Assembly (NCBI RefSeq): GCF_030013595.1
Contig: NZ_CP122768.1
DNA: 64,000 nucleotides
Strand: one strand, 5' to 3'
Source: Escherichia coli
GTDB taxonomy: Bacteria; Pseudomonadota; Gammaproteobacteria; Enterobacterales; Enterobacteriaceae
Each line of letters begins with the position of its first letter. Within the stretch, counting starts at the first letter, position 1. This document shows, one piece after another, positions 13,938 through 47,903 of this stretch. The translations under genes and the position numbers were made by a program. The notes below the pieces were generated by a model that saw nothing but the letters and a program-made list of their open reading frames with translations, searched no databases and had not been told where the DNA came from.

Positions 13938-13977
13938 GCCCCTATCGTTATAATACACGGTAGGGGCGTTTTTGTTT
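13938..13977 (+). terminator. Strong hairpin plus T-run immediately upstream of the integrase gene (a TATAAT hexamer sits in the loop)
   Basis: GCCCCTATCG-ttataataca-CGGTAGGGGC followed by GTTTTTGTTT. Confidence 0.6.
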
Positions 13978-13986
13978 GGAAATGGT

Positions 13987-15666
13987 ATGAAAACTAAACT
14001 ATATTCGTATATTCGCTTCTCGTCTATGCGTCAGAATGATGGTTCGAGTTATGAACGGCAAATCAGGATGGCGAGAGAGGTTGCGGCAAAGTATGACCTT
14101 GAACTGGTAAATGATTATCAGGATCTGGGTGTATCTGCGTTTAAGGGTGCTAACTCTAAAACAGGGGCGCTATCTCGTTTCCTTGATGCAATTGGTAGAT
14201 CCGTTCCTGTTGGTAGCTGGCTATTCATTGAAAACTTGGACCGCTTATCCCGTGCCGATATTGTCAGTGCGCAGGAGTTATTCCTTTCAATCATCCGTAG
14301 GGGAATAACCATTGTTACTGGCATGGATAACAAGATCTACTCGCTGGATACTGTTACCGCTAATCCGATGGACCTGATGTTCTCCATCCTTCTATTCATC
14401 CGTGGTAATGAGGAAAGTCAGACTAAGCGCAATCGTACTAACTCAAGCGCATTGATTAAGATTAAAGCTCATCAAGAAAATCCCCAGAATCCGGCAGTGG
14501 CAATCGAGGAAGTTGGAAAGAATATGTGGTGGACTGATACCACATCTGGTTATGTGCTTCCTCATCCGGTCTTCTTCCCTATTGTTCAGGAAGTTGTGGA
14601 ATTACGCAGGAATGGACGGTCAACCGCCGAGATACTGGATCACCTTAACGCGACATACACACCACCACCAGCCGCAAGTCACAAGAGGCATTCAAACTGG
14701 TCACGGGCAATGATTGAAAGGTTGTTCCATACCCGCGCTTTGATTGGTATCAAGGAAATCTCTGTAGATGGCGTTAAGTATGAGTTAAAGGATTATTATC
14801 CTCGTGTGCTAGATGACGCTGAGTTTTATCACCTTAAGAAAAGCATTGGTGTTAGAGCATGTAACTATGGAGACAAGGAAGAAGTTAAACCGATCCCCCT
14901 GCTTAGTGGTGTTAATCTGCTGAAATGTGATCATTGCGGTTCCGCTATGGTTAAGGTGAAAGGAACAAACAGACGGCCTAACCAATATCGTTATTCATGC
15001 GATGCAATGCGCTCTAGTCGTATTGAATGTGTGCATACAAACTGGAGTTTTCGCGGCGACCAATTAGAGAAAGCTGTATTGCAATTGCTGGCTGATAAAA
15101 TCTGGATTGCTGAAGATAAGGCTAATCCGGTTCCGGCTTTGAAAGTACAGATTGATGAAATATCACGCAAGATTGATAACCTGATTGCCCTTTCTGCTAT
15201 GACAGGAGCAACGAAGGAGCTAGCCGATCAGATTACTACCCTCAATAGCGAGCGTGAAACACTCTACAATCAGATCAAGATGGCAGAAGAGGAAATGTAT
15301 TCTGTGGACTCTCAAGGCTGGGAGAAGCTCGCAGAATTTGATTTAGAAGATGTTTACAACGAGGATCGCATTAAGGTCCGGTTTAAGATTAAGCAAGCTC
15401 TAAAACGGATCGGGTGTAGCAGGATTGACAAGTACAAAAACTTGTTTGTACTGGAATACATCGATGGCAAGACCCAGAGAGTTGTAATAGAAAATTCAAG
15501 AGGACCGAGGAAAGGCCGGATCTTCGTTGATTTGAAGACTATCAATGATAGGCAGATTCTGGAGAGTAACGGGCTTGTTCTGCATCCATGTTTAGACATG
15601 CTGACAGATAAGAACTGGAAACCAGAAGAGGAAATACCAGGTCCATTACAGGAATTTGGAATTTAA
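13987..15666 (+). CDS. Large serine recombinase (phage integrase)
   Basis: N-terminal resolvase domain with catalytic-Ser context YSYIRFSSMRQ. Also a recombinase domain, a Cys-rich zinc ribbon (CDHCGS...YSCDAMRSSRIECVH) and a coiled coil. ATG at 13987 is preferred over the TTG at 13972. Confidence 0.85.
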   Translation: MKTKLYSYIRFSSMRQNDGSSYERQIRMAREVAAKYDLELVNDYQDLGVSAFKGANSKTGALSRFLDAIGRSVPVGSWLFIENLDRLSRADIVSAQELFLSIIRRGITIVTGMDNKIYSLDTVTANPMDLMFSILLFIRGNEESQTKRNRTNSSALIKIKAHQENPQNPAVAIEEVGKNMWWTDTTSGYVLPHPVFFPIVQEVVELRRNGRSTAEILDHLNATYTPPPAASHKRHSNWSRAMIERLFHTRALIGIKEISVDGVKYELKDYYPRVLDDAEFYHLKKSIGVRACNYGDKEEVKPIPLLSGVNLLKCDHCGSAMVKVKGTNRRPNQYRYSCDAMRSSRIECVHTNWSFRGDQLEKAVLQLLADKIWIAEDKANPVPALKVQIDEISRKIDNLIALSAMTGATKELADQITTLNSERETLYNQIKMAEEEMYSVDSQGWEKLAEFDLEDVYNEDRIKVRFKIKQALKRIGCSRIDKYKNLFVLEYIDGKTQRVVIENSRGPRKGRIFVDLKTINDRQILESNGLVLHPCLDMLTDKNWKPEEEIPGPLQEFGI

Positions 15667-15727: not shown

Positions 15728-16245
15728 AATTTAATTGCGTTAGGCAGCGTAAGCAAGTTTCATAGTAGTTTCCTCTAAAATAATAAGTTCACTACTATTT
15801 ATCAGAGAAAATTGTCTTACTATTGCATTCTCTATCTGGATGTGGGTATAGGCGGGATTGAATACGGCAAAACTGAAACATTCCACTACTGCAATAAATC
15901 ACTAAACAATATAAAGAATATTGCAAGTGTGGAGTGGAACTAATGCAAGATATTAAAATTCATTTTCAAGATTACAGTTTCGTTAAGGTTGATTGCTCTC
16001 CTTCTATCGGAATGGAATTAAGAGATTATTTCTCGTTTGAGGTTGAAGGGGCTAGGTTTAGCCCCCGTTACAAGTATTCTGGCTGGGATGGACGAATAAG
16101 ACTGTTTACGCATGAAAACACCCTACCAATTGGACTATTAAAAACGTTGGGTGTCTTCGTTAAAAATATGGGCTATTCAGTCTGGATTGACCCCAGATTG
16201 CTTGAGAAGGAAGATGTAACCAAAGACGCGATTAATGAATGGATT

Positions 16246-16254
16246 GATTCCTTA
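16246..16254. repeat. IS1 target-site duplication, left copy (GATTCCTTA)
   Basis: Identical 9-mer at 17023-17031, directly abutting both IS1 ends. Confidence 0.9.
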
Positions 16255-16309
16255 GGTGATGCTGCCAACTTACTGATTTAGTGTATGATGGTGTTTTTGA
16301 GGTGCTCCA

Positions 16310-16585
16310 GTGGCTTCTGTTTCTATCAGCTGTCCCTCCTGTTCAGCTACTGACGGGGTGGTGCGTAACGGCAAAAGCACCGCCGGACATCAGCGCTATC
16401 TCTGCTCTCACTGCCGTAAAACATGGCAACTACAGTTCACTTACGCCGCCTCTCAGCCCGGTACGCACCAGAAAATCATTGATATGGCCATGAATGGCGT
16501 CGGATGTCGCGCCAGTGCACGCATTATTGGCGTTGGCCTCAACACGATTTTCCGCCACTTAAAAAACTCAGGCCGCAGTCGGTAA
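16310..16585 (+). CDS. insA: IS1 InsA
   Basis: 91 aa, [39 protein letters not shown]... Confidence 0.95.
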
Positions 16586-17007
16586 CCTCGCGCATACAAC
16601 CGGGCAGTGATGTGATTGTCTGCGCTGAAATGGACGAACAGTGGGGCTACGTCGGTGCTAAATCACGTCAGCGCTGGCTGTTTTACGCGTATGACAGGAT
16701 GCGGAGGACGGTTGTGGCGCACGTCTTCGGTGAACGCACTCTGGCCACACTGGAGCGTCTTCTGAGCCTGCTGTCGGCCTTTGAGGTCGTGGTATGGATG
16801 ACGGATGGCTGGCCGCTGTATGAATCACGCCTGAAGGGAAAGCTGCACGTTATCAGCAAGCGTTATACTCAGCGCATTGAGCGGCATAACCTGAATCTGA
16901 GACAACATCTGGCAAGGCTGGGACGGAAGTCACTGTCGTTCTCAAAATCGGTGGAGCTGCATGACAAGGTCATCGGGCATTATCTGAACATAAAACACTA
17001 TCAGTAA
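16504..17007 (+). CDS. insB: IS1 InsB' frame (expressed as an InsAB' transposase by -1 frameshift)
   Basis: 167-aa ORF in the -1 frame relative to insA, overlapping it at AAAAAAC. Confidence 0.9.
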
Positions 17008-17022
17008 GTTGGAGTCATTACC

Positions 17023-17031
17023 GATTCCTTA
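17023..17031. repeat. IS1 target-site duplication, right copy (GATTCCTTA)
   Basis: See 16246-16254. Confidence 0.9.
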
Positions 17032-18215
17032 GAAGTGTATTCCGGTAGCAATAAAATCAATCCTTATTGGTATCAAAGGGAGGCAGTCTTTCAGGGTATC
17101 CACAATCGCCGTAGAATGCTGGTTCTTCCTACCAGTGCCGGAAAGTCATTGATTGCTTGTATGCTGTCTCGTTGGTACTTAGAGAACTACACCGGAAAAG
17201 TGTTAATCATTGTTCCGACTACATCGCTAGTGGTTCAAATGAGGGATGATTTCATCGATTATAGGCTATTCCCTTATGAAGCAATTCATACAATGATGAG
17301 TGGTAGCGGGAAACATCCGGGAGACAGGTTAATCACGGTTAGTACCTGGCAATCAGCTTGCAAGATGCCTCCTGAATGGTTCCGACAATATGGAATGTTG
17401 ATAGTTGATGAATCGCATAAGGCTAGTGCCAAAAATATTACCAATATCATCAATGGAATGAATCATTGCCAATTTAAGATCGGCATGACTGGTTCCCCGA
17501 AAGAATCAAAGTGCCATTTAATGCAGTATGTCGGGCTTTTCGGTGATATTTCTAAGATCGTGAGTATTGACCGCCTGATGGAAGAAGGGCAGGTGACAAA
17601 ACTGAAAATTAACTGTCTTTTCCTTCGTTATACAGATGAGGAATGTAGCGCGGTTAAGGGGCGAGAATATGCGGAAGAGATCAAGTATATTACGTCTAAC
17701 CCACGACGAAATAAGTTTGCTTGTAATTTGGCGCTAAAACTAGCTAAGAAGGGCGAAAACGTATTCCTGATGTTCCGCAATACTAAGCACGGAAAACTTA
17801 TGTATGATGCGTTACAGAAGGTACACGACAAGGTTTATTATATTGACGGTGGAGTTAAGACAGAAGAACGTGATGAATTTAAGAAAATGGCGGAGGGTGA
17901 CACCGGGATCATTTGCGTTGCATCCTATGGTGTGTTCTCTACTGGTGTTTCAATTAAGAATTTGCATCATGTTATTTTCGGTCATCCAGTGAAGGAATCA
18001 ACTATCGTTCGTCAGAGTATCGGTCGTGCATTGCGTAAACATGGTTCTAAGGATATTGCAACGGTCTGGGATCTTATAGATCATCTGTGTATATTCGGTC
18101 GTAACGGAAAAGTCAAGCATAAAAATTATGCGGTAAAACATGCACTTGAGAGAATCCGCTATTATCTAACCGACAAGTTCAGCTATGCAACTAAAACAAT
18201 TGCTATATAACAAAA

Positions 18216-28845: not shown

Positions 28846-29352
28846 TTAAGAGATTTTCAAAGTCTGCTTAGTGCCAGTCTTCTTAATGTTGGTAAGGAAA
28901 GCAGCCGGAGGATTGCTTAACCAGTAATAATGAAAACCACTTTGCATACTGTTATAAGGAACAGTGACAGCAGCACCACCCAAATTAACGGTTATATTCC
29001 CCGCTCTACCGTTCTGGAGATATACAGCCATAGTAGGAGTACCACCATTGAATTGACCAACGATAACGCCAATCAGACGCCCTACGCCCACGTTTTCGGG
29101 GTTCTCCATAGATCCTTTACCGCGCATGTCAGTTACTGGATAGTTTGAAGCAGTTACACCCCAGTTATTACCCAATGAAGTAGACCACGCAGCAGTAGCT
29201 ACAACCGTATCCATACCACGACCACACATCGCGCTCATATTACCAGGTACACCAACTTTTAACGCTTGCATAGCCTCACGCATCCATCTCTTGCCAGTTA
29301 CAGAAACAGCCGATGATCCGACCCAGCCGGGCTTATTAACGACATTTGCCAT
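28846..29352 (-). CDS. Hypothetical tail-region protein, 168 aa
   Basis: ORF with a GGAG SD, located downstream of the terminator that follows the tail-tube gene. Confidence 0.5.
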   Translation of the reverse strand: MANVVNKPGWVGSSAVSVTGKRWMREAMQALKVGVPGNMSAMCGRGMDTVVATAAWSTSLGNNWGVTASNYPVTDMRGKGSMENPENVGVGRLIGVIVGQFNGGTPTMAVYLQNGRAGNITVNLGGAAVTVPYNSMQSGFHYYWLSNPPAAFLTNIKKTGTKQTLKIS

Positions 29353-30058: not shown

Positions 30059-33000
30059 TTATTTAGTTGCTTTGAGTTCGGCAATTTCTTTCTGTAATGC
30101 TTCGATCTGGGCTTTATATTTGGCGTCCATTTCCTGAATAGCTTTAATAATCAAGGCATTAACAGCGGAGTTAGAAATAGTCTTAATTGCTTCTGGATTT
30201 TCTGGATCTTCGGTGGATTGAATACCTACTGCTTCCGGCAACACTTCTTCCAGATCCTGAGCAATAATACCTACTTCGCGTTTAATCACTGTGTCATCAG
30301 AAAGAGATTTAACTTTATCGTAGGTGTAGACTTTCAGGGAGTTTACTTTCTCTAATGCGCCGTCCTGTAATTCTTCCTTGTTGATTTTAAGGCGAGCATC
30401 AGAACGAATGTACACATCGTTAAAGCTACCGTTTCTGGATGCGCTTAAATCACCAGCCGCGTTAAAGTCAAACGTTGCATCGTGTACGTGCATACGCACC
30501 ATAGCATTTCCGATAGTACCGCTAGGAACATGTACACCCATTGCTGCGATATGATATTTACCTTGATGGGTTGCTTTCCATACGTTATGAGCGGAATCGG
30601 TTGATTGTTGACAGTCGACCTGAATACCAGAAGCACGATCACGCCAGCTAGTCCAACTACCACCAGCAACGCTACCACGAATAAGACCATTACCGCCACC
30701 GGATACAGTGCCCGTTTCAAGGTGAATCATCTTACCGCCGAATTTCCAGACTTCGGTTTGTTTCTCACCACGGAAGCGAATAACACCAGCGTCATCGCAA
30801 TACATCAAGCCCAACTCTAAACCGTTTGGATCTCTAAACCAGATGTGCTTATTGCCAGCGCGTTTAAACGTAATATCAGCACCAGTTGTTGTGATATTGC
30901 TAGCAACGTTTAGACTACCCGCCATAGAGAACAGAATAGGTCCAGTGCCACCCTGAGTACGTTCAGTATACCAGTGATAACTTGTAGCATCCTTACATTC
31001 AAAAACCTGTTTGCGTTGCTCGTTACCCCATGTATGGAGACTAAATTGCGAAGAAGAACCACGGTTAGCATCAAATGCAATTTCACCAGATTCTACACGT
31101 ACAAAGCCTCTAAAACGTGTTGTTATGTTACCAGTACCCATAGCACGTTCAGTGATAAAATGTGCGCCCTGACTGTCTTCAATCTGTAGGATGTTATCGC
31201 GACCGTTATTGCTATCGCCCCAATGGTTAAACCGGAAGTAATCGCGGGAATTTAATCGCCCAGCGTCGAAAGTCAAATGCCCTTTCTTAATGTAAACGTC
31301 ATTACTAAAGCGAGCGGCTTTGCTTGCACGTTCTAAGACTAATGCACCTTCGTTACCATCACCACCCAAAGTAACATTACCGCTACCAAGATGGTAAATG
31401 AACGGACGATAGCCGTTCCAACTACCAAGTTTATCATTTTCGGCAGTAGACAGAAGATATACGTTTTGACCATCATTACGCCAGAATGCACCATAATTAC
31501 CGTAGATCATGCGGTAAGCGTCGCTATTCATTGAGATGAATTGAGCGTTAGTATAAACTCGTTTTGTGTTACCGGTTGCAAGTTCGATCTGTCCGTCTAT
31601 GTGGTGACGAATAGAAGTACCACCTACATCACTATACCATTCAAAAACGTTAGTATCAGCATTACCATAACCGATCCACCCTTGACGGGTAATAGATCCA
31701 GTCCGATTATCTTGAAACGTAATATGGTTGGATTGACCAGCAGGACGCCGCAAGGTAATAACATTACTACCGCCACCCAACATCATTCGACCAGAAAGAA
31801 TATTACCTTTATGAGTCCCAGCAATAGAGCTACTAGATTCAACGGTTAGAATCTCCTGAGCATCTGTACTACCCGTGGCGAGTCGATAAGTAGAACCCTG
31901 AACCGTCTCATGCCAGATCATTTCATTATAGTTACTGCGGAATTTACGAATATATTTCCGACCAGTACCCCTATCATTACTCAAGTGAACAATATCATAA
32001 CTATTTTGTGTGTTATCGTCAAAACTCAACACACCTCGTTTGTTTTCGGTGTTGAAAAGAGTAATGATGCGCCCATCAATAACACCAACAGAAGGTTTAA
32101 TTAACGTGGCTTCCGGTGTATCGTGAACAGTCAGATTAACATAAACACTTTTACCAAATTCAACAATAACGTTATCAGTGTAACGCTGATATTTCACATA
32201 AATGTCATAGTTATCACCGGATGTATTGACGGCAAATACATCAAAATCTTTGACGGTATTTCGACGATATGCAACTACGTTAAGTCCTTTAGGTCTATCG
32301 TTACCACTACGGAGAAGAATTTCTACTACATCAACTTGGTCATATGCCGTAACGTTGTAACCATTACCACCATGAATACGGAAAAACACACTACGCCCGT
32401 TTTGTGGAATTGTTGCGGTTGCCAATTTGAAATATGCAGATACGTTTTCGCTAGAATTGGGAACAGACATAACGACGTTTTTAACAAACATCTTATCAAC
32501 TTCGGCTTTGGTGTATGCACCAATCTCGCCAGGAGTCGGCTTATCACCTTCGTGATACATCTTATAGCTAAAGTTCTTCTGTCCTTCTCTATCAAAACCA
32601 TAGGTTTCAACACGAGATCCACCAGACGCATAACGGAAAGTAAATCCGCGACCGTGAGCTTTACCGGCAGAGTGAGGAACGTTAAGAGTTAGATCCATGA
32701 GTCCATCTTGACCATTGGTACGGAAAGCACCAAAGTAGTTAAGATCTCTCGCTGTCTGGTCTTCCAAATAGTTAGCTGTTTTGGTTAACAGATACCCGCC
32801 ATGCTTAGTGTTGGTATTCTTCTTGATGTAAAGAGCATCGTTACTACCTTCAATACCATCAATTCGACGGTTAGCGGCTGCGATCGCTGAATCAGTATCA
32901 GTTTTGTTTTTGTCAACCTTTGCGTTAATAGCGGTATGGTTGCTATTCACCGTCCCTGTAAGGTTACTGATTTTAGTATCAACATCTTTCTTGTTGTCGG

Positions 33001-33520
33001 AAACGACCTTTTCAATCGCTGTTTTGTTAGCTGCAACCGTGCTAGTTAAGCTAGAAATTTTGTTATCTGCATCGGTTTTATTTGCAGTAACAGTTTTAGT
33101 CAAGTTGCTAACGTTGGTGTTAGTGGTATTAACTTTGTTGTTAATCGCGGTGTTATTGTCATTAACCGTCGTGGTTAAAGCTGCGATTTTATTGTCCGCA
33201 TCTCGTTTATTATTTGCTACAGTAGTTTCTATAGCTGATTTGTTAGATGCAACTGTCCCCGTAAGGTTATTGATCTTAGTATCAGCATCGGTTTTATTTG
33301 CCGCGATAGTCGCATCAGTAGTTTTCTTGTTATTGTCTACTTTTGTGTTTAAAGCATTATGACTTTCAGGAGAAACACTTACTTGAACTACTGCGTTATT
33401 TTTATCTTTGGTATAAATTACATGGTCTGCCATCTGAATAGCGATTTCACCGACCTGTAATTGTTCCGGCGTTGGCTTTTTACCAGCCGTCTGTGTGCGT
33501 TTAAATTGGATCGACTGCAT
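30059..33520 (-). CDS. Long side tail fibre with C-terminal intramolecular chaperone (peptidase S74-like) domain, 1153 aa
   Basis: Fibre-type N-terminus (MQSIQFKRTQTAGKKPTPEQLQVGEIA). About four 40-aa NKTDAD-x-KI-x-LT-x-TV repeats. The C-terminus (SDARLKINKEEL...VGIIAQDLEEVLPEAV...coiled coil) is typical of self-cleaving chaperone domains. Confidence 0.75.
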   Translation of the reverse strand: MQSIQFKRTQTAGKKPTPEQLQVGEIAIQMADHVIYTKDKNNAVVQVSVSPESHNALNTKVDNNKKTTDATIAANKTDADTKINNLTGTVASNKSAIETTVANNKRDADNKIAALTTTVNDNNTAINNKVNTTNTNVSNLTKTVTANKTDADNKISSLTSTVAANKTAIEKVVSDNKKDVDTKISNLTGTVNSNHTAINAKVDKNKTDTDSAIAAANRRIDGIEGSNDALYIKKNTNTKHGGYLLTKTANYLEDQTARDLNYFGAFRTNGQDGLMDLTLNVPHSAGKAHGRGFTFRYASGGSRVETYGFDREGQKNFSYKMYHEGDKPTPGEIGAYTKAEVDKMFVKNVVMSVPNSSENVSAYFKLATATIPQNGRSVFFRIHGGNGYNVTAYDQVDVVEILLRSGNDRPKGLNVVAYRRNTVKDFDVFAVNTSGDNYDIYVKYQRYTDNVIVEFGKSVYVNLTVHDTPEATLIKPSVGVIDGRIITLFNTENKRGVLSFDDNTQNSYDIVHLSNDRGTGRKYIRKFRSNYNEMIWHETVQGSTYRLATGSTDAQEILTVESSSSIAGTHKGNILSGRMMLGGGSNVITLRRPAGQSNHITFQDNRTGSITRQGWIGYGNADTNVFEWYSDVGGTSIRHHIDGQIELATGNTKRVYTNAQFISMNSDAYRMIYGNYGAFWRNDGQNVYLLSTAENDKLGSWNGYRPFIYHLGSGNVTLGGDGNEGALVLERASKAARFSNDVYIKKGHLTFDAGRLNSRDYFRFNHWGDSNNGRDNILQIEDSQGAHFITERAMGTGNITTRFRGFVRVESGEIAFDANRGSSSQFSLHTWGNEQRKQVFECKDATSYHWYTERTQGGTGPILFSMAGSLNVASNITTTGADITFKRAGNKHIWFRDPNGLELGLMYCDDAGVIRFRGEKQTEVWKFGGKMIHLETGTVSGGGNGLIRGSVAGGSWTSWRDRASGIQVDCQQSTDSAHNVWKATHQGKYHIAAMGVHVPSGTIGNAMVRMHVHDATFDFNAAGDLSASRNGSFNDVYIRSDARLKINKEELQDGALEKVNSLKVYTYDKVKSLSDDTVIKREVGIIAQDLEEVLPEAVGIQSTEDPENPEAIKTISNSAVNALIIKAIQEMDAKYKAQIEALQKEIAELKATK

Positions 33521-34440: not shown

Positions 34441-34863
34441 TTAAAAACGCGCTAGATAAGAAAATTTAAGGCTAAGTGTCCCAACGATACCCCCATCACT
34501 AGAATCATCGTCATAATCGGTATTAGAAGCTACTGGAGTGATATCTGAAATTGAGAAGCCCAAATCTTTAAAACGTGGGTTATCCGGCTGAATCTGGATT
34601 ATCTGGCAAATACCCTCATGAATTTTGGTTTCATGAATCTGAGAATACAATTGCATTTCGATAACGCATTCAGCTTGCATTGCATTACCGCCACGGACCC
34701 TATTGTAAGTCTCATTCATTCCGGTGATCCAACAAACCACGTCATCACTAAAGCCTTGCTGAGTTTGTTCTACGTTTAAAGCCAGACCTAAATCTTGTTC
34801 GATAATATCCTGCAAGGCGCGTTTGATTTTCAGTCTAGGCATATTATTAACGGTAGCGAGCAT
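34441..34863 (-). CDS. Head-tail/tail completion protein, about 140 aa
   Basis: Start at MLATVNNMPRL (AGGGGG SD). Called on position between the adaptor and tube genes. Confidence 0.35.
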   Translation of the reverse strand: MLATVNNMPRLKIKRALQDIIEQDLGLALNVEQTQQGFSDDVVCWITGMNETYNRVRGGNAMQAECVIEMQLYSQIHETKIHEGICQIIQIQPDNPRFKDLGFSISDITPVASNTDYDDDSSDGGIVGTLSLKFSYLARF

Positions 34864-39427: not shown

Positions 39428-41332
39428 TTAGAACGATGTTACCCAGCTACGGCCTCTATTTGGGCGTCTGACGATGTTTTGACGTTGTGGTCGTGTGATT
39501 GGCTTAGTTTCTTCGATTTGCTCGTCAGATTGCGATTTAGGAGCTTCTACAGGTTCTTCTGGTTCACGGTTCAAACTATCTTTGATGGCTTCGAGTTTTT
39601 CCCATGACATTTTATTGAGTACATGACGAGAAGCAGCATAGGAATAAGCCAGGCAGTCCAACGCTTCGTTTCGTGTTTGTCCAACTTTTACCCAACGTGT
39701 GGTATTACCCTGCCGTTTCAACTGTTCAGAAAGCAATTGCTCGCAATAGTCATCAGGAACGTCACCAATCTGGAAGACAGTGTGAGGATCGCCATCTCTC
39801 AAGTTCCGGTTAATCATTTCACGGATCATCGTTTTAAGGTTGTTTACGCCCAGAATTTTAAGGGTAAAACCACCCGTTCTTGTGTCTTTTACCGGAAGGA
39901 TTGGTGCATCAACATTGCTTGCGCCTTTAATGGCGGTTAGATTTTGCCACCGACTACAGAATCGATAGATCACGTTTGTAGCTCGTCCGTTCGATGAGTC
40001 CACGAAAGCAGATAACATCGGGATTCGTTCACCGGATCGGGTATAGAATTTAGCTTTCAGGAAGTTGTAAAGCTGGTTATATGCTGGTGATTCGTGGCGT
40101 TCGCAGTTCACATCATAGAATGATCGGTGATCAACTACGCATAGCCCTTTACGAGAAATACCCAGCAAGGTAGATTCCAGACGGTCTTTTTGCTGGTCAA
40201 CTCCACCTACCAGAGCCAGTACATCATCAGGAATATTGTCTAGGCTAATATCAGTTTTCAGCGTTTCTAATTCGTCGGCTGTGCGGTCTTCGTTAAGATC
40301 ATCGAAGGTTTCACCGAGGACTGTATTGTAGAACGTTGCCAGGGACATATTCGCGTAGCTATCAGCAAAGTCCACCACACACGCACGGATAGAACTAAAC
40401 GGAGACATAAGGCGGTTAGCATGAAAACCGATTACTTCCGCGTTTGGTTCGGTGGCGACCCATTCTCCCTGTCCAACAGCACGTAGGCGATCACCCTCGG
40501 TCCAATCGGTTTCACATTCAGGGCAACGGTAAACGGCTGTATCTGGGTTGGGTAATGATTTACCGTTAATCGTATGCCAATCGAAATGTACGTTACTCCA
40601 TTCCATTACGTGCTTGTGTCCGCAATGCTGGCAAACGACATGATATTTTCTCTTATCCGAGAGTTCCCATTGTTGGTTAATCGCCCCATCACGAGCGGTT
40701 GGAGTGGAAGCAATTACGATCCTTGCATCTTCCCCGAAAGTGGTTGCGCGTTGTTCCGCTAGTTGGATCGGGTTCCCTTCGTCTGACTCATCAGCCGCAT
40801 CAACTTCATCAAGAATAATCAAAGGGAGTGTTTTACCGCGAAGATGTGACGGACTATTCAACGACATGAAATACATAAACGATCCGTTACGAAGCTGAAT
40901 AATCGATGAGTTGTTAACGGCATTGCGATCTGATTTGTCGGTGATCATCGCCTTTAATTCTGGTGTTGCCTCTAATACTGGCTTCACCTTACCAGCGATC
41001 CAAGAATTTAGTTCTCTAACGTTACTTTGCAACACCCCAATATTAGTAGGGTTACTCGCGATCCGATGGAAGATAATTCCGTTAAGAATCATGGTCTTAC
41101 CCAACTGTGCCGAACATTTAAACACAATTTTTCTACGGTCTTCGGTGATCGCGTCCATCATTCCACGTTGGAAGGGATGCAATTTAATTAGCGATCCGGC
41201 TTTAACACCATCGGTTGCAACTACATTAGCCTCTACCCATTCGCTAGGTTTCATCGTTTTAGGTGGGCGAATTGCCGCAGAGATATTTTTAAGAATCTTT
41301 TTTAATTTTGCCTTGTTCGAAATCAGTTTCAT
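39428..41332 (-). CDS. Terminase large subunit (lambda GpA family)
   Basis: 634 aa. Walker-A-like CSAQLGKT, DEVD Walker B and CxxC...CxxC (CQHCGH...CPECE), as in GpA-type terminases. Confidence 0.85.
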   Translation of the reverse strand: MKLISNKAKLKKILKNISAAIRPPKTMKPSEWVEANVVATDGVKAGSLIKLHPFQRGMMDAITEDRRKIVFKCSAQLGKTMILNGIIFHRIASNPTNIGVLQSNVRELNSWIAGKVKPVLEATPELKAMITDKSDRNAVNNSSIIQLRNGSFMYFMSLNSPSHLRGKTLPLIILDEVDAADESDEGNPIQLAEQRATTFGEDARIVIASTPTARDGAINQQWELSDKRKYHVVCQHCGHKHVMEWSNVHFDWHTINGKSLPNPDTAVYRCPECETDWTEGDRLRAVGQGEWVATEPNAEVIGFHANRLMSPFSSIRACVVDFADSYANMSLATFYNTVLGETFDDLNEDRTADELETLKTDISLDNIPDDVLALVGGVDQQKDRLESTLLGISRKGLCVVDHRSFYDVNCERHESPAYNQLYNFLKAKFYTRSGERIPMLSAFVDSSNGRATNVIYRFCSRWQNLTAIKGASNVDAPILPVKDTRTGGFTLKILGVNNLKTMIREMINRNLRDGDPHTVFQIGDVPDDYCEQLLSEQLKRQGNTTRWVKVGQTRNEALDCLAYSYAASRHVLNKMSWEKLEAIKDSLNREPEEPVEAPKSQSDEQIEETKPITRPQRQNIVRRPNRGRSWVTSF

Positions 41333-41498: not shown

Positions 41499-41732
41499 AT
41501 GACTATGACTACTAAAGCTACTCGCGGTCGCCCTGCCCGTTATACTCGTGAACAGATGGCTGATATTGCCTACGCTTACTATACAGCGGATCGCGGGAAG
41601 GAAGCGAAAGAACAGATTCTTAGTGAACATGGGATTTCAGTAGCCCAATTCTATAAGAATATGAAGAAGTTAGACATTAAATTCTATGTTCAGATCGATG
41701 ACGGTCAGATCGTAGAAGCAACAGGTTTTTGA
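41499..41732 (+). CDS. Small DNA-binding protein (N-terminal RGRP AT-hook-like plus HTH), 75-77 aa
   Basis: MTMTTKATRGRPARYTREQM...GISVAQFYKNMKKLDIKF. Paralogue of 45446-45628. The true start may be the ATG at 41505. Confidence 0.6.
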   Translation: MTMTTKATRGRPARYTREQMADIAYAYYTADRGKEAKEQILSEHGISVAQFYKNMKKLDIKFYVQIDDGQIVEATGF

Positions 41733-42523: not shown

Positions 42524-43363
42524 TTAGATACCAAAGACAGCAAGTGATCCGGCGTTCTTACGAATCAATGCGGCGGTATTATTAACGATTGCACGAGCAT
42601 TGTTAGGCTGCGGTAATTTCAAAGTTGCTATCGTCTCTTCCTCAATCAAGCCCAATTCAACCAGCACTGGTAAACAGTCAGTTGTGAACTCAAGCTGACC
42701 ATGTGCTGATTGTCGGGCATACATGTAAGCAGGAGGAAGAACATCATAGCCACAAGGCTTACCAGAAGCATCCAGACGGCGCTCAATGTGTTTAGCCTCA
42801 CACAATCCCTTAAGAATACGTTGTACCTTCGTAGAGCCTCGTTTTTCGCCCAATAAGCGGGTTAAGCTGTGCCCGTCAATGGCACGGCGAACATGAAGAT
42901 CAATTAATTGTTCTTTTTCTTCCGCTAAAGTCAGAGCCTTACGAATCCAATCAACTTCGGTCATCTTGCTTGCGTCTGGGAAAGCGTTATTCTTTAATTC
43001 TTCATTTTCTTTCTTCAAACGCTGCCATTCATCAACCAGCATTGCGGTATAAACCGGATCGGTCTGTGCGATAACAATGTAGCTATCACGTTCAGTCAGA
43101 AGATAAACTTCAATTGGTTTGCCTTTACGGCCTAAACGGTCAGTTTTTGACCAAAACGCCACTGGCGGTTTGGTTACAATTTGAGCTTCAACCAGACGAT
43201 CAACCGTTCTCATAATATCGGTGTGACGGTTTTCACGCCCCATTAGTTCAGCAATACGCCAGGTAGAAATTGATAATTCTTTCTCTACAGAGTCATTTGC
43301 AGCAGTCAGGTCAACAGAAGAAGCAGTTTTAACAGCAGTATTCATAGTAGTAACAGTATTCAT
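42524..43363 (-). CDS. Rha-family phage regulatory protein with C-terminal extra domain, 279 aa
   Basis: The region ISTWRIAELMGRENRHTDIMRTVDRL...IEVYLLTERDSYIVIAQ resembles the Phage_pRha domain. Confidence 0.55.
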   Translation of the reverse strand: MNTVTTMNTAVKTASSVDLTAANDSVEKELSISTWRIAELMGRENRHTDIMRTVDRLVEAQIVTKPPVAFWSKTDRLGRKGKPIEVYLLTERDSYIVIAQTDPVYTAMLVDEWQRLKKENEELKNNAFPDASKMTEVDWIRKALTLAEEKEQLIDLHVRRAIDGHSLTRLLGEKRGSTKVQRILKGLCEAKHIERRLDASGKPCGYDVLPPAYMYARQSAHGQLEFTTDCLPVLVELGLIEEETIATLKLPQPNNARAIVNNTAALIRKNAGSLAVFGI

Positions 43364-43451
43364 AGTAGTAATTCCCCTTTCGGTTTAGTGATATTGATCC
43401 TCCTAGTTCCGGCATCACCACCGGAACATTTTTATTTATGATAGAAATTTA

Positions 43452-43784
43452 TTACCAATCGATTTCTACTTGGTCTTCTTCATAATAAGGAATCGCATAT
43501 TCATAACGCCAATTTTCGATGATTTCACGTTCTTCATTAGTAAGAAGGTGATTGTTAACTGGAGTCGCATTGTGATTACCAGCTTCGAATTGCTCGCGAA
43601 CTTCCAGCATTGCATGAATACCAGTTAAGGACATCAGATCAAACGGAACATGCATACTACGGGAGATTGTTTCACGGGATACGCCCCAATCATTTTCTAC
43701 ATGGCTAGGGGTTACAGAAACGGTTTTGCCGGAGATTTTAACAGTCCAGTCATACAGGGATTTAGTGATGGTAAATTCTTTCAT
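43452..43784 (-). CDS. Hypothetical protein, 110 aa
   Basis: ORF with an AAAGAGGA SD. Confidence 0.5.
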   Translation of the reverse strand: MKEFTITKSLYDWTVKISGKTVSVTPSHVENDWGVSRETISRSMHVPFDLMSLTGIHAMLEVREQFEAGNHNATPVNNHLLTNEEREIIENWRYEYAIPYYEEDQVEIDW

Positions 43785-43807
43785 GTTACATCCTCTTTAC
43801 AAATCTA

Positions 43808-43901
43808 GGTCAAATAGGTTCAAAGTTGTCAAGTGCGATAATCATAAAAAAGTTTGAAGATATTGTCAAATACCACTTGACAAGACACCAAAGGGTTGAC
43901 C
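43808..43901. promoter_or_regulatory. Dyad-symmetric operator/promoter region built from TTGACAA/TTGTCAA and GGTCAA/TTGACC half-sites
   Basis: GGTCAA-N12-TTGTCAAG (43808-43833) is mirrored by CTTGACAA-N12-TTGACC (43876-43901). In addition, TTGTCAA-N7-TTGACAA forms a palindrome at 43863-43883. Confidence 0.55.
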
Positions 43902-43905
43902 TAAC

Positions 43906-44094
43906 TTACAGCATATCTAAGCCTTCATCGTAACCGTAGAAGCCATTCTGAGAAGAGAAGCAGATTGGTGCGTAGTCGTCGTCATCTTCGTCTTGTTCAT
44001 CTTGTTCTGGGGCTTCCTGAGCGGTTTCTTTGCCGTAGTTAAACATGGCTTCATCCAGTTCATAGTGGAAATCCTCTAAAAGAAAGTGAATCAA
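43906..44094 (-). CDS. Small very acidic protein (up to 62 aa; start uncertain)
   Basis: ORF ending ...EQDEQDEDDDDYAPICFSSQNGFYGYDEGLDML. It has a TTG start in the track, or an internal ATG at 44046. Confidence 0.4.
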   Translation of the reverse strand: MIHFLLEDFHYELDEAMFNYGKETAQEAPEQDEQDEDDDDYAPICFSSQNGFYGYDEGLDML

Positions 44095-44741
44095 TCTAAT
44101 ATTATTTATAAAGAGAAAATTCTTGTTATTATGAAAGGAGTGATCTGGTAGAGTCCAAAACTGGTCTGTACTTGAAAGGTGATTGGATTCAGTCGGGCAA
44201 AGCCCTCCTTCATGTTTTGATTAAATCATCATCAAAACGAAGAAGTATCTTTAGAATATAAGATCTTTCTTTTGGAGAAATAATAATCAGGAAGCAATTT
44301 GGCAACCGAAGGTTGCAATCCCGAAGGGATAACCAATACCTTTCTAGAAAGTGATTGTTACTCACTTCGTTCGTTTACTAGAATCAGTTATCATCTGGTA
44401 TTAAATCCCTTTCTAAGAAAATCCTTTCAAAAGTGATTCTCGATGCCACGCAGTGGCGTCGCAGACGTTTGGGAGTGAGCGAAGCGAGCGAGCAAACTAG
44501 TTAATTCCTTCTAAGACCATCTAGTATCATCTAGTTTAAATTAGTTGTTACTAGAAGCAATTGGTTGGCGCTTCGCGCAGTCGGGCTAAAGCCCTCCTAA
44601 TTATCTTTTTGGTTATTTGTTGTTTTTAGTTTTACACATGAGCGTAGCGAATGTGTTATATAATATCTATGCACGCCCAATCCCCCGCTTTTTCCCCTCA
44701 CTAAGTTAATGTTTTATAAAGAGTTTTTCTCACCAATCCTT

Positions 44742-44930
44742 TTCGGGGGCAAATTTCAGGGGCAAAAATTAGATTTTCAGGGGCAAAAATAGTGGGTTTC
44801 AGGGGCAAAAATGAGGGGCAAAATCACTGTTTCCCAGAATTTCAGGGGCAAAAATAGTGGGTTTCAGGGGCAAAAATGGGATGTGGAATCTAGGGGATTT
44901 TGGTTCAGGGGCAAAATTCAGGGGCAATTT
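44742..44930 (+). repeat. Iteron array: 9 direct copies of TTCAGGGGCAAAA (7 with a perfect TTCAGGGGCAA core)
   Basis: Copies start at 44742, 44755, 44776, 44798, 44811, 44841, 44863, 44904 and 44917. A 38-bp block at 44776-44813 is repeated exactly at 44841-44878. Confidence 0.9.
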
Positions 44931-44968
44931 TCATAGTGTAGGGCTAGTGTAGGTTTGAAAATCCTTTG

Positions 44969-44997
44969 TTGACACTGTGTAGGATCGGTGGTATACT
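44969..44997 (+). promoter_or_regulatory. Near-consensus sigma70 promoter P1
   Basis: TTGACA (44969-44974), 17-bp spacer, TATACT (44992-44997). A GTGTAGG box lies in the spacer. Confidence 0.65.
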
Positions 44998-45025
44998 TGA
45001 AAATTCGAGATAAATATGTTATAAT
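44997..45025 (+). promoter_or_regulatory. Near-consensus extended -10 promoter P2
   Basis: TTGAAA (44997-45002), 17-bp spacer with TG at 45017-45018, TATAAT (45020-45025). Confidence 0.65.
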
Positions 45026-45029
45026 ATTT

Positions 45030-45409
45030 GTATTGAAAGTGAAAATTTACCGATTTTCCTTCCTATTGTTATCACCGTGTTAAATTGTTATATGTCTGTG
45101 AAGATTTGGATCTGAGAGAAAATCTTGTAACAAATCTTTACAATTCATAGCTCAATTAATGCTCACCGCTTTAGCAAAAAGTGCTATGCCTTTTTCTAAA
45201 TTGATTGAATATACATCAATTTGGTTAAATCGTGTTCTTCGCTTTAGCAATTCGTGCTGTGGTTTAACACATTTAACACGTCTGATAACATCTGAATAAC
45301 ATTTTAACATATCTCTGTTATAAATACATATATAAGAGATAAATGTGAGGGGTTGAAAAATAAAATACAATCCCATATAAATAATAGTGAGCGGTTAACG
45401 CTCTTTTTT
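45030..45409 (+). ncRNA. Putative roughly 380-nt untranslated leader / regulatory RNA ending at a terminator
   Basis: No RBS-preceded ORF lies between the P1/P2 promoters and the terminator at 45389-45409. Contains two CGCTTTAGCA-N5-TGCT hairpin repeats. Confidence 0.3.
45389..45409 (+). terminator. Rho-independent terminator upstream of the 45446 gene
   Basis: GAGCG-gttaa-CGCTC followed by TTTTTT. Confidence 0.75.
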
Positions 45410-45445
45410 AAGAAATCATTAATCCACATTGTAGGAGGATTCGAG

Positions 45446-45628
45446 ATGGCACGACCTGTTAAGTTCACTCGCGAAATCATCTTAGAAATGGCTAAACGCT
45501 ACTTTGAGTTAACGCCGGGTGTGAGAATTGAAGAGTGGTTTAAAAATGAGGGCATCGATAAATCAACCTTTCATAAACTGCTAAAACGATATGACATTAA
45601 AGTGAAGATTGAAGCTACCGTTTGGTAA
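45446..45628 (+). CDS. Small HTH protein, 60 aa (paralogue of 41499-41732)
   Basis: MARPVKFTREIILEMAKRYF...GIDKSTFHKLLKRYDIKVKIE. AGGAGG SD 7 nt upstream. The longer track ORF start was rejected. Confidence 0.65.
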   Translation: MARPVKFTREIILEMAKRYFELTPGVRIEEWFKNEGIDKSTFHKLLKRYDIKVKIEATVW

Positions 45629-45742
45629 TCAACTTTGACTGAGAATTATATGATGGCTTTAAAAAAGAAAAAGCCTCCTTTGCTGCAACAAGGGAGGCTT
45701 GAAATGAACAATTAAAACTAACTTTCCATAGGAGTATTTATA

Positions 45743-46684
45743 ATGTTATTTTCCGCTAACTTTTTCACTAACGAAGTAACCAACGCTAAAGCAGTTATCA
45801 AATTTGGCACCGAAGCAAACAAGAAGATTCAGCCGAAAGTTGTTGCTCATGTTTCCTTTGCGCAGCAGAAATCCGCTTTCGCTGGCTTTAAAGCACATCG
45901 TGAAGCACTGATCGCGGCTGGCTTTGGTGTTGACGGTAAACTGCCTAACGGCATTCGTAAAGCAATCGACCGCGTTAAACCAGTTAAAGACGTTGCAGTA
46001 GACCACATCGTTACTTTTACCGTTAAGAACTCTTCTGAACTGTTCCACCTGGTTATTGCTGGTGATACTGCTATCGTTTCCGCTCCTAACATGGATTTTC
46101 AGGATACCGCTGATTGCCAGATCACCTTCGGTCGTCGTAAAGAAGTTACCGGAAAAGCTAAACTGAACTTCACTAAATCCGGCAATCCTTACTTTGCTGT
46201 ATTCTTTAACAGCCACGCTACCGAAAAAGAAGTTGTAGAACTGGTTGCTTATGAAGGTGAAGAGAAAGAACGTATTGAATCTTGCGAAGCATTTCTGGAA
46301 CTGGAAGCACAGGTGAATGCTGTTTCTCCGGTTGTTGAAGATCGCTTTGCTGCACTGGAAGCACAGATCGCAGAACTGAAAGCTGCACTGGAAGAAAAAG
46401 ACCAGATTATCGAAGCACAGAAAGCTGAGATTGAAGAACTGAAAGCTAAAGAAGTTGCTCCGGTGGCAGTAGTTGAAAACGCGGCTGATGAGGCCGCAAA
46501 TGATGAAGTAGAAGTGAAAATCGATGTGATGCGTGATCCGATGGCTGCACTGCAATTACTTCGTTCTTTTAAGGGCAAATCTCATTTTTCTAGTGATGTA
46601 GAAGATGAGGAAGAAGAACAGAAACGCAATGCTGCAATGCTTCATGATGAAATGTACGGTACTAACTTTTCTTACTGCCAATAA
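45743..46684 (+). CDS. Highly codon-optimised protein of unknown function with central coiled coil and acidic tail, 313 aa
   Basis: AGGAG SD. Codon usage of the highly expressed type, which generates long shadow ORFs on the opposite strand. Flanked by hairpins at 45673-45699 and 46690-46707. Confidence 0.7.
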   Translation: MLFSANFFTNEVTNAKAVIKFGTEANKKIQPKVVAHVSFAQQKSAFAGFKAHREALIAAGFGVDGKLPNGIRKAIDRVKPVKDVAVDHIVTFTVKNSSELFHLVIAGDTAIVSAPNMDFQDTADCQITFGRRKEVTGKAKLNFTKSGNPYFAVFFNSHATEKEVVELVAYEGEEKERIESCEAFLELEAQVNAVSPVVEDRFAALEAQIAELKAALEEKDQIIEAQKAEIEELKAKEVAPVAVVENAADEAANDEVEVKIDVMRDPMAALQLLRSFKGKSHFSSDVEDEEEEQKRNAAMLHDEMYGTNFSYCQ

Positions 46685-47345: not shown

Positions 47346-47903
47346 TTAAGACACATCAAATTCATCGTCTTCTTCTGGTTCTTGTTCTTCCGGTTCATCC
47401 ATTAATGGTAATTCTTCTTCCTCGTCTTCTCCCAAATCTGCATTTTCGAACAAGTCCCCTACTTCATTTAAACGACGCTCGATGATCTCCCTTAGCTTAT
47501 TCTTTAATGTTTTCTGGTCATTGGCAGATTCGAGAATTTCTAGGGCATCGATCGTACAAATCTGCAAAATAGTCTGCTTCACTTTCCCGCAATATTCCGC
47601 TAGTTGCTGTTCTACATAACCGACAGGAATCAGGAGGTTCATTTTTTCCTGATTCTCTCGTTCGGCTGCATCTGCCATTGCTCTTTCTCTGCGGAGACGT
47701 TCTTGATCAATCGCTTCTTTGATTGAAGTTTGTTTAAGTGGGTTAATTACGTTCTTTAGCACCCAATCGCAACCTTCCTTTGCCGGAACACGCCTCTTAT
47801 TGGTATTGTAAGGTAGTCCCCTTTCTAACCATCGCTTACCGCCACCATTCAATGTATAGCCATATAAACGGGAAATTTCTGTAAGGGTTAATTCTTCTTT
47901 CAT
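47346..47903 (-). CDS. Nu1-like terminase small subunit candidate (N-terminal wHTH, central coiled coil, acidic tail), 185 aa
   Basis: The N-terminus LTLTEISRLYGYTLNGGGKRWLERGLP and the ERLRRERAMADAAERENQEKMNLLIPV segment resemble Nu1/TerS architecture. The gene is not adjacent to the large subunit. Confidence 0.45.
   Translation of the reverse strand: MKEELTLTEISRLYGYTLNGGGKRWLERGLPYNTNKRRVPAKEGCDWVLKNVINPLKQTSIKEAIDQERLRRERAMADAAERENQEKMNLLIPVGYVEQQLAEYCGKVKQTILQICTIDALEILESANDQKTLKNKLREIIERRLNEVGDLFENADLGEDEEEELPLMDEPEEQEPEEDDEFDVS

Follow-up and report, generated by a model that had tools for sequence, protein, structure and literature searches.

A hairpin-rich noncoding segment beside the iterons of an Escherichia coli prophage is a candidate cis-acting region of a replication origin

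The 64,000-nucleotide stretch of DNA analyzed here (the window; contig NZ_CP122768.1) is Escherichia coli chromosome with a prophage of about 35 kb, an uncharacterized siphovirus prophage that integrates via a serine recombinase. Between the leftward and the rightward early transcription units of this prophage lies a segment without annotated genes (44100-44700). We found that it carries an array of short hairpins with a three-base G-N-A loop closed by a C-G pair (C-GNA-G), that these hairpins keep their positions and their strands in relatives whose sequences differ, and that the right half of the segment is inherited together with neighboring iterons and with the N-terminal domain of a downstream protein. 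Judging from the sequence and from its likeness to known origins, we tentatively favor the reading that the segment is a DNA-level cis-acting region of an iteron-type replication origin, in which the hairpins, extruded or in single-stranded DNA, would serve as initiation signals.

Results

An array of C-GNA-G hairpins with fixed strand polarity

A first-pass annotation of the window had described the segment as packed with tetraloop-type hairpins, dispersed repeats and an excess of CTAG. All the hairpins and repeats that it listed were found in place by a direct check of the sequence. The label given to the loops had to be changed, since they consist of three bases (GAA, GCA or GTA) closed by C-G and are therefore triloops; a sixth hairpin, CGTC-GCA-GACG at 44457-44467, had been overlooked. 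The presence of cUUCGg tetraloops on the minus strand was considered and rejected on inspection, as the stems pair in the triloop register only.

Perfect C-GNA-G triloops with a stem of at least 4 bp were counted on both strands of the window. Five of the 12 in the whole window fall in 44100-44700, where 0.11 would be expected (Poisson P ~1e-7). They represent 5 of the 8 triloop hairpins of the segment, compared with 7 of 228 in the rest of the window (Fisher 7e-6). To describe the relatives, we gathered about 45 related loci from IMG/VR, RefSeq and metagenomes. Right of 44436 their sequences fall into non-alignable types, of which the window represents type A, and the module specific to type B shows an independent excess of C-GNA-G hairpins (3 observed, 0.035 expected). 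In a hand count of distinct hairpins, about 13 of 16 carried a G-N-A loop (binomial 7e-10). The strand that carries GNA is identical, position by position, in type A, in type B and in RB49, a T4-type phage discussed below. RNAfold z-scores were between -2 and -3.4 on both strands of 44100-44660, and hairpin H3 reaches 8 bp on the plus strand only, via a T.G pair. As a signal, the hairpin array outranks the CTAG excess. The structures are listed here with their positions.

44190-44209, minus strand: H0, GGGC-AAA-GCCC, with tandem G.A mismatches on the minus strand; relatives have GGGC-TAAA-GCCC or GGC-TTC-GCC (C-GAA-G on the minus strand)
44214-44238: 8-bp stem GTTTTGAT-N9-ATCAAAAC
44302-44330, plus strand: P1, tandem C-GAA-G triloops GCAACC-GAA-GGTTGC and ATCCC-GAA-GGGAT, each with CCGAAGG; almost invariant in types A, B and C
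44442-44467, plus strand: P2, GATGCCAC-GCA-GTGGCGTC (44442-44460) and CGTC-GCA-GACG; first feature of the type-specific module
44479-44485, plus strand: GCGAAGC minimal hairpin within GTGAGCGAAGCGAGCGAGC; the motif is also found in type B
44568-44598, GNA-type loops on the minus strand: P3, tandem hairpins GCGC-TTC-GCGC (44568-44578) and GGGC-TAAA-GCCC, before an A+T-rich stretch
44634-44656, plus strand: inverted repeat ACACAT-N11-ATGTGT around a GCGTAGC minimal hairpin (44642-44648)

At P1, P2 and P3 the hairpins persist as structures while their sequences change. The first hairpin of P1, which the annotation gave as GCAAC-cgaag-GTTGC, occupies 44302-44316 and the second, ATCCC-gaa-GGGAT, 44318-44330; in type D this pair is replaced by GACGCTC-CCT-GAGCGTC and TGC-GAA-GCA, and in RB49 by other hairpins. 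At P2 all hairpins are on the plus strand; type A has GCCAC-GCA and CGTC-GCA, type B has ACGCC-GTA, and types C and D have GCGCCC-CGCA. The second hairpin of P3 is GGGC-TAC-GCCC in most relatives, and the type B pair consists of GCGC-TAC-GCGC and ACGGC-TAC-GCCGT. Changes of loop bases preserve the GNA pattern (GAA to GCA in P1 of locus L043, GCA to GTA at P2, GAA to GTA at P3). No compensatory covariation was found in the alignable copies, the covariation terms of alifold being positive; this type of analysis is uninformative here because the hairpins are invariant where the copies align. The stem at 44214-44238 was rejected as a conserved structure, since it is lost in the diverged copies L043, L048 and L050; in its place, and without covariation support, alifold pairs the ends of the 75-nt element described below.

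Co-inheritance of the right half with iterons and a protein domain

The left part of the segment (about 44186-44436) is common to most relatives, and the block 44214-44345 is almost unchanged in most versions. The right part, 44437-44740, and the iterons are exchanged together as one block. The features concerned are the following.

44600-44638: stretch of 80% A+T ending in the DnaA-box-like 9-mer TTTTACACA (44630-44638), the 9-mer being kept in type A relatives; no integration host factor (IHF) consensus was found beside the iterons
44689-44700, minus strand: single inverted partial iteron TGAGGGGAAAAA
44742-44929, plus strand: nine direct iterons TTCAGGGGCAAAA (type A), with none elsewhere in the prophage; one inheritance unit with 44437-44740
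45743-46684, plus strand: ORFan protein of 313 amino acids (aa), a candidate iteron-binding protein with an N-terminal domain that differs between iteron types

The other iteron types are TAGTGTAGGTTT (B) and ACGGGGA (C/D), and the three types pair with three unrelated N-terminal domains (45743-46684 in the window, L024 4862-5887 and L036 1337-2350). The protein measures 313 aa in type A, 341 aa in type B and 337 aa in types C/D; a coiled-coil and acidic architecture is retained in all three, and a C-terminal motif is common to A and B. One hybrid (L010, L017) combines type A iterons with the promoter region of type B, and its protein is still of type A. Neither the helix-turn-helix (HTH) protein nor the small terminase subunit tracks the iteron type. 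This co-variation of iterons, right module and N-terminal domain suggests that 44437-44740, the iterons and the 313-aa-type protein form one specificity unit. Iterons and protein look like a pair matched in specificity, as lambda O is to its iterons. The only relatives of the 313-aa protein are "hypothetical" ones, with 11 representatives among 1.8 billion, and its AlphaFold2 model (pLDDT 59) gave no fold match.

Among the options that the first-pass annotation had left side by side, protein-binding or cis-acting DNA is thus the one that fits best, the right half being co-inherited with the iteron type and the downstream N-terminal domain. The packaging role that it had included under this option is unlikely, as types A and B have nearly the same small terminase subunit but different iterons.

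Past the type A iterons and before the rightward promoter, at 44935-44955, there are two copies of the type B repeat (TAGTGTAGG).

A 75-nt element and hairpins common with RB49-like phages

An AT-rich element of 75 nt (44216-44292, plus strand), with the ends TGATTA(A)...TAATCA, is 80% identical to a spacer of RB49-like phages (Krischvirus). In the viral collection it was found in these two phage groups only, and within the window at this locus only. The RB49 spacer, of 413 bp, lies between a strong terminator and a DprA-like gene and contains two tandem copies of the element. It also contains two tandem plus-strand hairpins (ACTCC-GTA and TCGC-GAA) and one on the minus strand (TCCGC-GTA), that is 3 C-GNA-G hairpins, compared with 5 scattered in 50 kb of RB49. 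No protein is common to the prophage and the RB49 locus, and the flanking proteins are unrelated. Parts of the spacer match three or four places per Krischvirus genome (59 Krischvirus records).

The segment as RNA

We considered the possibility that the segment acts as RNA, as one or several small RNAs or as a structured leader, with GC hairpins that stabilize a transcript or bind a protein; the RB49 copy would then be a horizontally shared RNA gene. The fold z-scores and the exchange of hairpins for other hairpins at the same positions would agree with this, as would the location of the RB49 region, which precedes the DprA-like gene on its sense strand, and the weak promoter-like sites of the plus strand at 44105 and 44355. 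Yet nothing above noise was found by the Rfam/covariance-model search in 43000-46000, in type B and C loci or in the RB49 spacer, even at E<=10, and ARAGORN found no tRNA or tRNA-like gene in the segment. Promoters in 44100-44740 match at best 9/12 of the consensus, and no intrinsic terminator (GC stem plus U-tract) was found in the same interval, the nearest being at 45389-45403. The RB49 spacer is downstream of a strong terminator and has no plus-strand sigma-70 match, and a promoter within it or within the 75-nt element was sought by scan and by eye and rejected.

Furthermore, the polarity of the GNA loops alternates between strands, so that a single transcript does not explain the pattern, and G-N-A triloops closed by C-G are a stability motif of DNA and not of RNA (PMC13037366). 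Indels of 10, 41, 60 and 210 nt are tolerated. The small-RNA and leader options of the annotation thus gained no support from Rfam, promoter, terminator or covariation searches, and we regard an RNA function as unlikely.

The statement of the annotation that no open reading frame (ORF) exceeds about 35 codons had to be qualified: ORFs of 51 aa (44210-44365, minus strand, GTG start) and 45 aa (44299-44436, plus strand, TTG start) exist, though RefSeq has no coding sequence (CDS) there. As genes, the 35-, 45- and 51-aa ORFs were rejected, since they are disrupted by 1-nt, 41-nt and 60-nt indels in relatives.

Strong promoters nearby point away from the segment.

44969-45025, plus strand: two overlapping strong sigma-70-like promoters, each with 11/12 matches and TG, directed rightwards

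The segment is thus flanked by a weak leftward promoter region and by strong rightward promoters. After the latter comes an untranslated leader of 400 nt (45025-45445), which closes with the intrinsic terminator (45389-45403 plus a T-run) before a small HTH gene; it could be an attenuator or a separate noncoding RNA.

Conservation, repeats and module exchange

The segment is less variable than its right flank. In relatives resembling the window, the number of variable columns per 50 was 1-11 in 44200-44350 and 44400-44900, versus 17-44 in 44900-45700, which comprises the promoter/leader and the small HTH gene. It lacks ORFs in 55-57 related prophages of E. coli, including those with intact neighbors, and the RefSeq relatives show a gap of about 1.38 kb without annotated CDS from the start of the leftward gene (155 aa) to the small HTH gene. 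The annotation had also proposed decayed sequence, and two observations would be in line with this: the window has lost 302 bp of the adjacent 155-aa gene, and a UvsW-like gene is split by IS1, as in a prophage copy that is degenerating. However, the absence of ORFs extends to all relatives, the segment is more conserved than its neighbors, and the hairpins reappear at the same positions in non-alignable versions. Decay of the segment was thus not supported, and its being a remnant of former genes appears very improbable.

The repeats in and around the segment are listed here.

44082, 44133, 44174, 44347, 44430 and 45035, plus strand: direct repeats GAAAG(G)TGAT, at indel and module junctions
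44340-44351: 12-bp palindrome CTTTCTAGAAAG, at which some relatives have an inserted repeat unit of about 60 nt
44497-44555: CTAG-rich stretch, with (C/T)TA(G/A) in 10-bp phase at 44511, 44521, 44531, 44541 and 44551

Five of the 12 plus-strand copies of AAAGG?TGA[TA] in the 64 kb fall in 44083-45036, all in the plus orientation. The 20-mer CAGTCGGGC(T)AAAGCCCTCCT occurs at 44190 and 44578 and, within the window, at this locus only. Oriented GAAAG(G)TGAT repeats contain the junctions of the 41-nt indel, of the 60-nt insertion, of the type boundary (the A/B/C boundary follows the copy at 44430) and of a 210-nt deletion in locus L045, which lacks the whole of 44139-44348, i.e. the left cassette.

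These junctions raised the possibility that the segment has no dedicated function and is a hyperplastic junction, in which repeats and hairpins promote the exchange of modules and conservation would reflect recent spread. In some 45 relatives, about 1.5 kb of sequence contains at least 8 distinct breakpoints of rearrangements, several exactly in GAAAG(G)TGAT, and the 75-nt piece is common to the otherwise unrelated RB49-like phages. GGGC...GCCC inverted repeats have been linked to deletions in T4 (PMC2839356), and the prophage has T4-like tail-fiber and UvsW genes. The PeSL cassettes of RB49 and phi1 (PMC2839356, PMC4122927) are likewise short noncoding stem-loop cassettes at the junctions of shuffled modules, and here too the partner is RB49-like. 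In contrast, PeSLs are defined by a consensus sigma-70 promoter and a terminator stem-loop (PMC2839356) and form a dispersed family of many copies, whereas the prophage has a single locus with neither, no U-tract and stems that are not GGGG/CCCC. Recombination alone would also leave unexplained why independent types keep G-N-A loops at matching positions and on matching strands, and why the block is less variable than the gene next to it. A purely recombinational role is therefore, in our view, doubtful.

The CTAG sites (44344, 44378, 44497, 44521, 44531 and 44551) are present as the annotation had reported, but their excess is only moderate, six sites versus 1.1 (prophage rate) to 2.6 (Markov expectation). 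The copy number of the 10-bp CTAG/TTAG unit (44511-44551) differs among relatives, and a 36-bp near-palindrome (44520-44555) is found inside the CTAG-rich stretch. Such elements could belong to protein-binding DNA of another kind, namely operators of early regulators or a partition/centromere-like or packaging site. Proteins would then bind to the GAAAGTGAT repeats, to the phased CTAG repeats and to the iterons, and the hairpins would be incidental. The enrichment of oriented repeats and the 10-bp phasing with variable copy number agree with this, and so do the co-variation of the iterons with a coiled-coil protein unlike known initiators and the two type-B-like repeats at 44935-44955 beside the rightward promoter. 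Yet the hairpin statistics are too strong for incidental structures, the small terminase subunit does not co-vary, plasmid-type partition is unlikely with 57 chromosomal copies, and no repressor-like partner was identified. We consider this explanation rather improbable.

Genomic context of the prophage

The prophage family is present in 55-57 of 5,426 complete E. coli genomes (about 1%); all 57 genomic copies are chromosomal, and a plasmid search gave no match. In metagenomes only types A and B of the region were found. We found no literature on this prophage, and PADLOC gave no noteworthy defense-system matches.

At the left end a serine recombinase (13972-15666) is followed by the UvsW-like helicase gene (15934-18210), which is interrupted by an IS1 transposase (16504-17007) that separates the UvsW_N domain (15934-16281) from the helicase domains (17035-18210). 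With this gene split, the copy in the window is probably defective. Next come an M15 endolysin, siphovirus tail genes including a tape-measure protein, and then head genes. Genes for a T4-like long tail fiber distal subunit and an adhesin (28846-29352 and 30059-33520) are located within this siphovirus prophage and are further evidence of exchange with T-even-type phages. ARAGORN called a 91-nt tRNA-Gln at 34586-34676 (plus strand), within a 156-aa ORF and antisense to it; this is probably either a false call or an atypical tRNA.

The large terminase subunit gene is at 39428-41332, its closest homologue in the phage collection being 44% identical. A small-terminase-like gene (phrog_57; 47346-47903) is located 6 kb from it, at the extreme end of the prophage beside the host hicB, so that the early/control region is situated between the two terminase genes. 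Paralogous small HTH proteins (41499-41732 and 45446-45628; L024 690-1295) have in common an N-terminal motif of the RPxxFTRE type, and a 201-aa protein of one relative appears to hold two such units.

The leftward 155-aa gene is a 468-bp CDS in relatives. The window keeps a remnant of it (43906-44094, minus strand), which forms the left border of the noncoding region, with 302 bp missing at about 44062; by BLAST, relatives carry 302 extra bases between 44058 and 44065, and the deletion breaks the frame. The 155-aa protein is an ORFan and has no relatives among GTDB species representatives. An exact T4 late-promoter octamer, TATAAATA, is present upstream of the gene (44103-44110, minus strand); it is kept in relatives and occurs in 6 copies in the window.

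Discussion

A tentative model of an iteron-type origin

The conservation of the segment, its modular co-inheritance with the iterons, the hairpin statistics and the strand polarity suggest to us an action at the DNA level. The right module (44437-44740), the nine iterons and the downstream protein may constitute one origin unit. From the iterons leftwards, its order would be the inverted iteron, the A+T-rich stretch with TTTTACACA, the minus-strand hairpins (44568-44598), the phased CTAG repeats and the plus-strand hairpins (44442-44467 and, further left, 44302-44330). In principle, divergent promoters should favor negative supercoiling and hence the extrusion of hairpins. The C-GNA-G hairpins may form in this way between the divergent promoters, or else on unwinding of the duplex, and might then mark sites free of SSB, the protein that binds single-stranded DNA, for priming or helicase loading on each strand. 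The logic would be that of ssiA/ssiB beside the oriV iterons of RSF1010 and of G4-type primase origins. The left module (about 44186-44436) would be a portable cassette, made of the 75-nt element and two hairpins, that is also found in RB49-like T4-type phages.

Comparison with known systems

GNA/GNNA mini-hairpins have been reviewed for the primase origins of G4, St-1 and alpha3, for ssiA of RSF1010 and for the hairpin promoters of N4, together with the properties of the GCGAAGC motif (PMC13037366). The oriV of RSF1010 (IncQ) resembles the region in its direct iterons, its A+T-rich stretch and its stable hairpins on opposite strands. Its ssiA carries CCGAAGG (PMC13037366), the heptamer present in both H1 and H2 of the prophage, in a comparison with the published motif. 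Unlike this plasmid, the integrated siphovirus prophage has no homologues of RepA, RepB' or RepC, it has several hairpins per strand over about 400 bp, and priming is only proposed for it.

The G4, St-1 and alpha3 origins also have a cluster of stable hairpins with GNA/GNNA motifs, which are believed to keep SSB away and to direct the primase of the host (PMC13037366). They belong, however, to single-stranded DNA phages and consist of three specific hairpins, whereas the prophage is double-stranded DNA (dsDNA) with shorter hairpins on both strands. The promoters of the N4 virion RNA polymerase are similar in having a stem of 5-7 bp and a loop of 3 bases (GGA or GAA) that extrudes from supercoiled DNA, but the prophage has no virion RNA polymerase gene, its large proteins being the tape-measure protein and the tail fibers. 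In lambda O/ori, pSC101 and P1 oriR, as here, the iterons correspond in type to the N-terminal domain of a neighboring protein whose C-terminal part is conserved, and an A+T-rich stretch and a DnaA-box-like 9-mer are present. The prophage differs from them by its intergenic iterons, its coiled-coil ORFan and an extra hairpin-rich region of 500 bp.

Several findings weigh against an origin and keep our preference tentative. No recognizable replication protein was found in the prophage, and the 313-aa coiled-coil ORFan might just as well act in regulation or in partition; a search of the prophage proteins with Pfam, PHROGs, NCBIfam and PADLOC gave no primase or Rep homologue. The DnaA-box-like match is a single one, of which about 0.1 would be expected by chance (an estimate). 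A minimum of the cumulative GC skew at 43-44.5 kb would agree with an origin, but it coincides with the switch of gene strand and is hence confounded. H0, favored on the minus strand, is situated left of the plus-strand clusters and does not fit a simple two-sided scheme. The deletion in L045 means that the left cassette is dispensable for persistence of the prophage. The RB49 spacer has no iterons despite its hairpins and its 75-nt element, and T4-type replication is not known to require hairpin signals of this kind. Local alignment with the primosome assembly (PriA) site of pMB1/ColE1, in the ori-proximal region of pMB1, scored 19, compared with 18.6 +/- 2.0 for shuffles, a similarity no greater than chance.

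Significance

In a broader and more speculative proposal, which we put forward as an unlikely one, a fixed-strand C-GNA-G cluster and the 75-nt element would together be a portable DNA-level cassette, common to a temperate siphovirus and to lytic T4-type phages of E. coli; its hairpins, extruded from supercoiled or unwound duplex, would recruit the replication or recombination machinery of the host. If true, dsDNA tailed phages would have a kind of cis element that has not been described for them. If the segment is purely recombinational, the idea of a 'shuffling cassette' would extend from T4-type to temperate phages.

GNA mini-hairpins have so far been chemical curiosities and features of a few initiation sites (G4-type origins, RSF1010 ssiA, N4 promoters). 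Here a conserved GNA array with a fixed strand order is found beside the iterons of a dsDNA prophage and recurs in a T4-type phage. Should the array prove functional, it would offer a tractable E. coli system, with natural deletion and swap variants, for learning the role of such hairpins in duplex genomes, and it would define the origin and the specificity determinant of a prophage family with nothing but ORFans in its early region.

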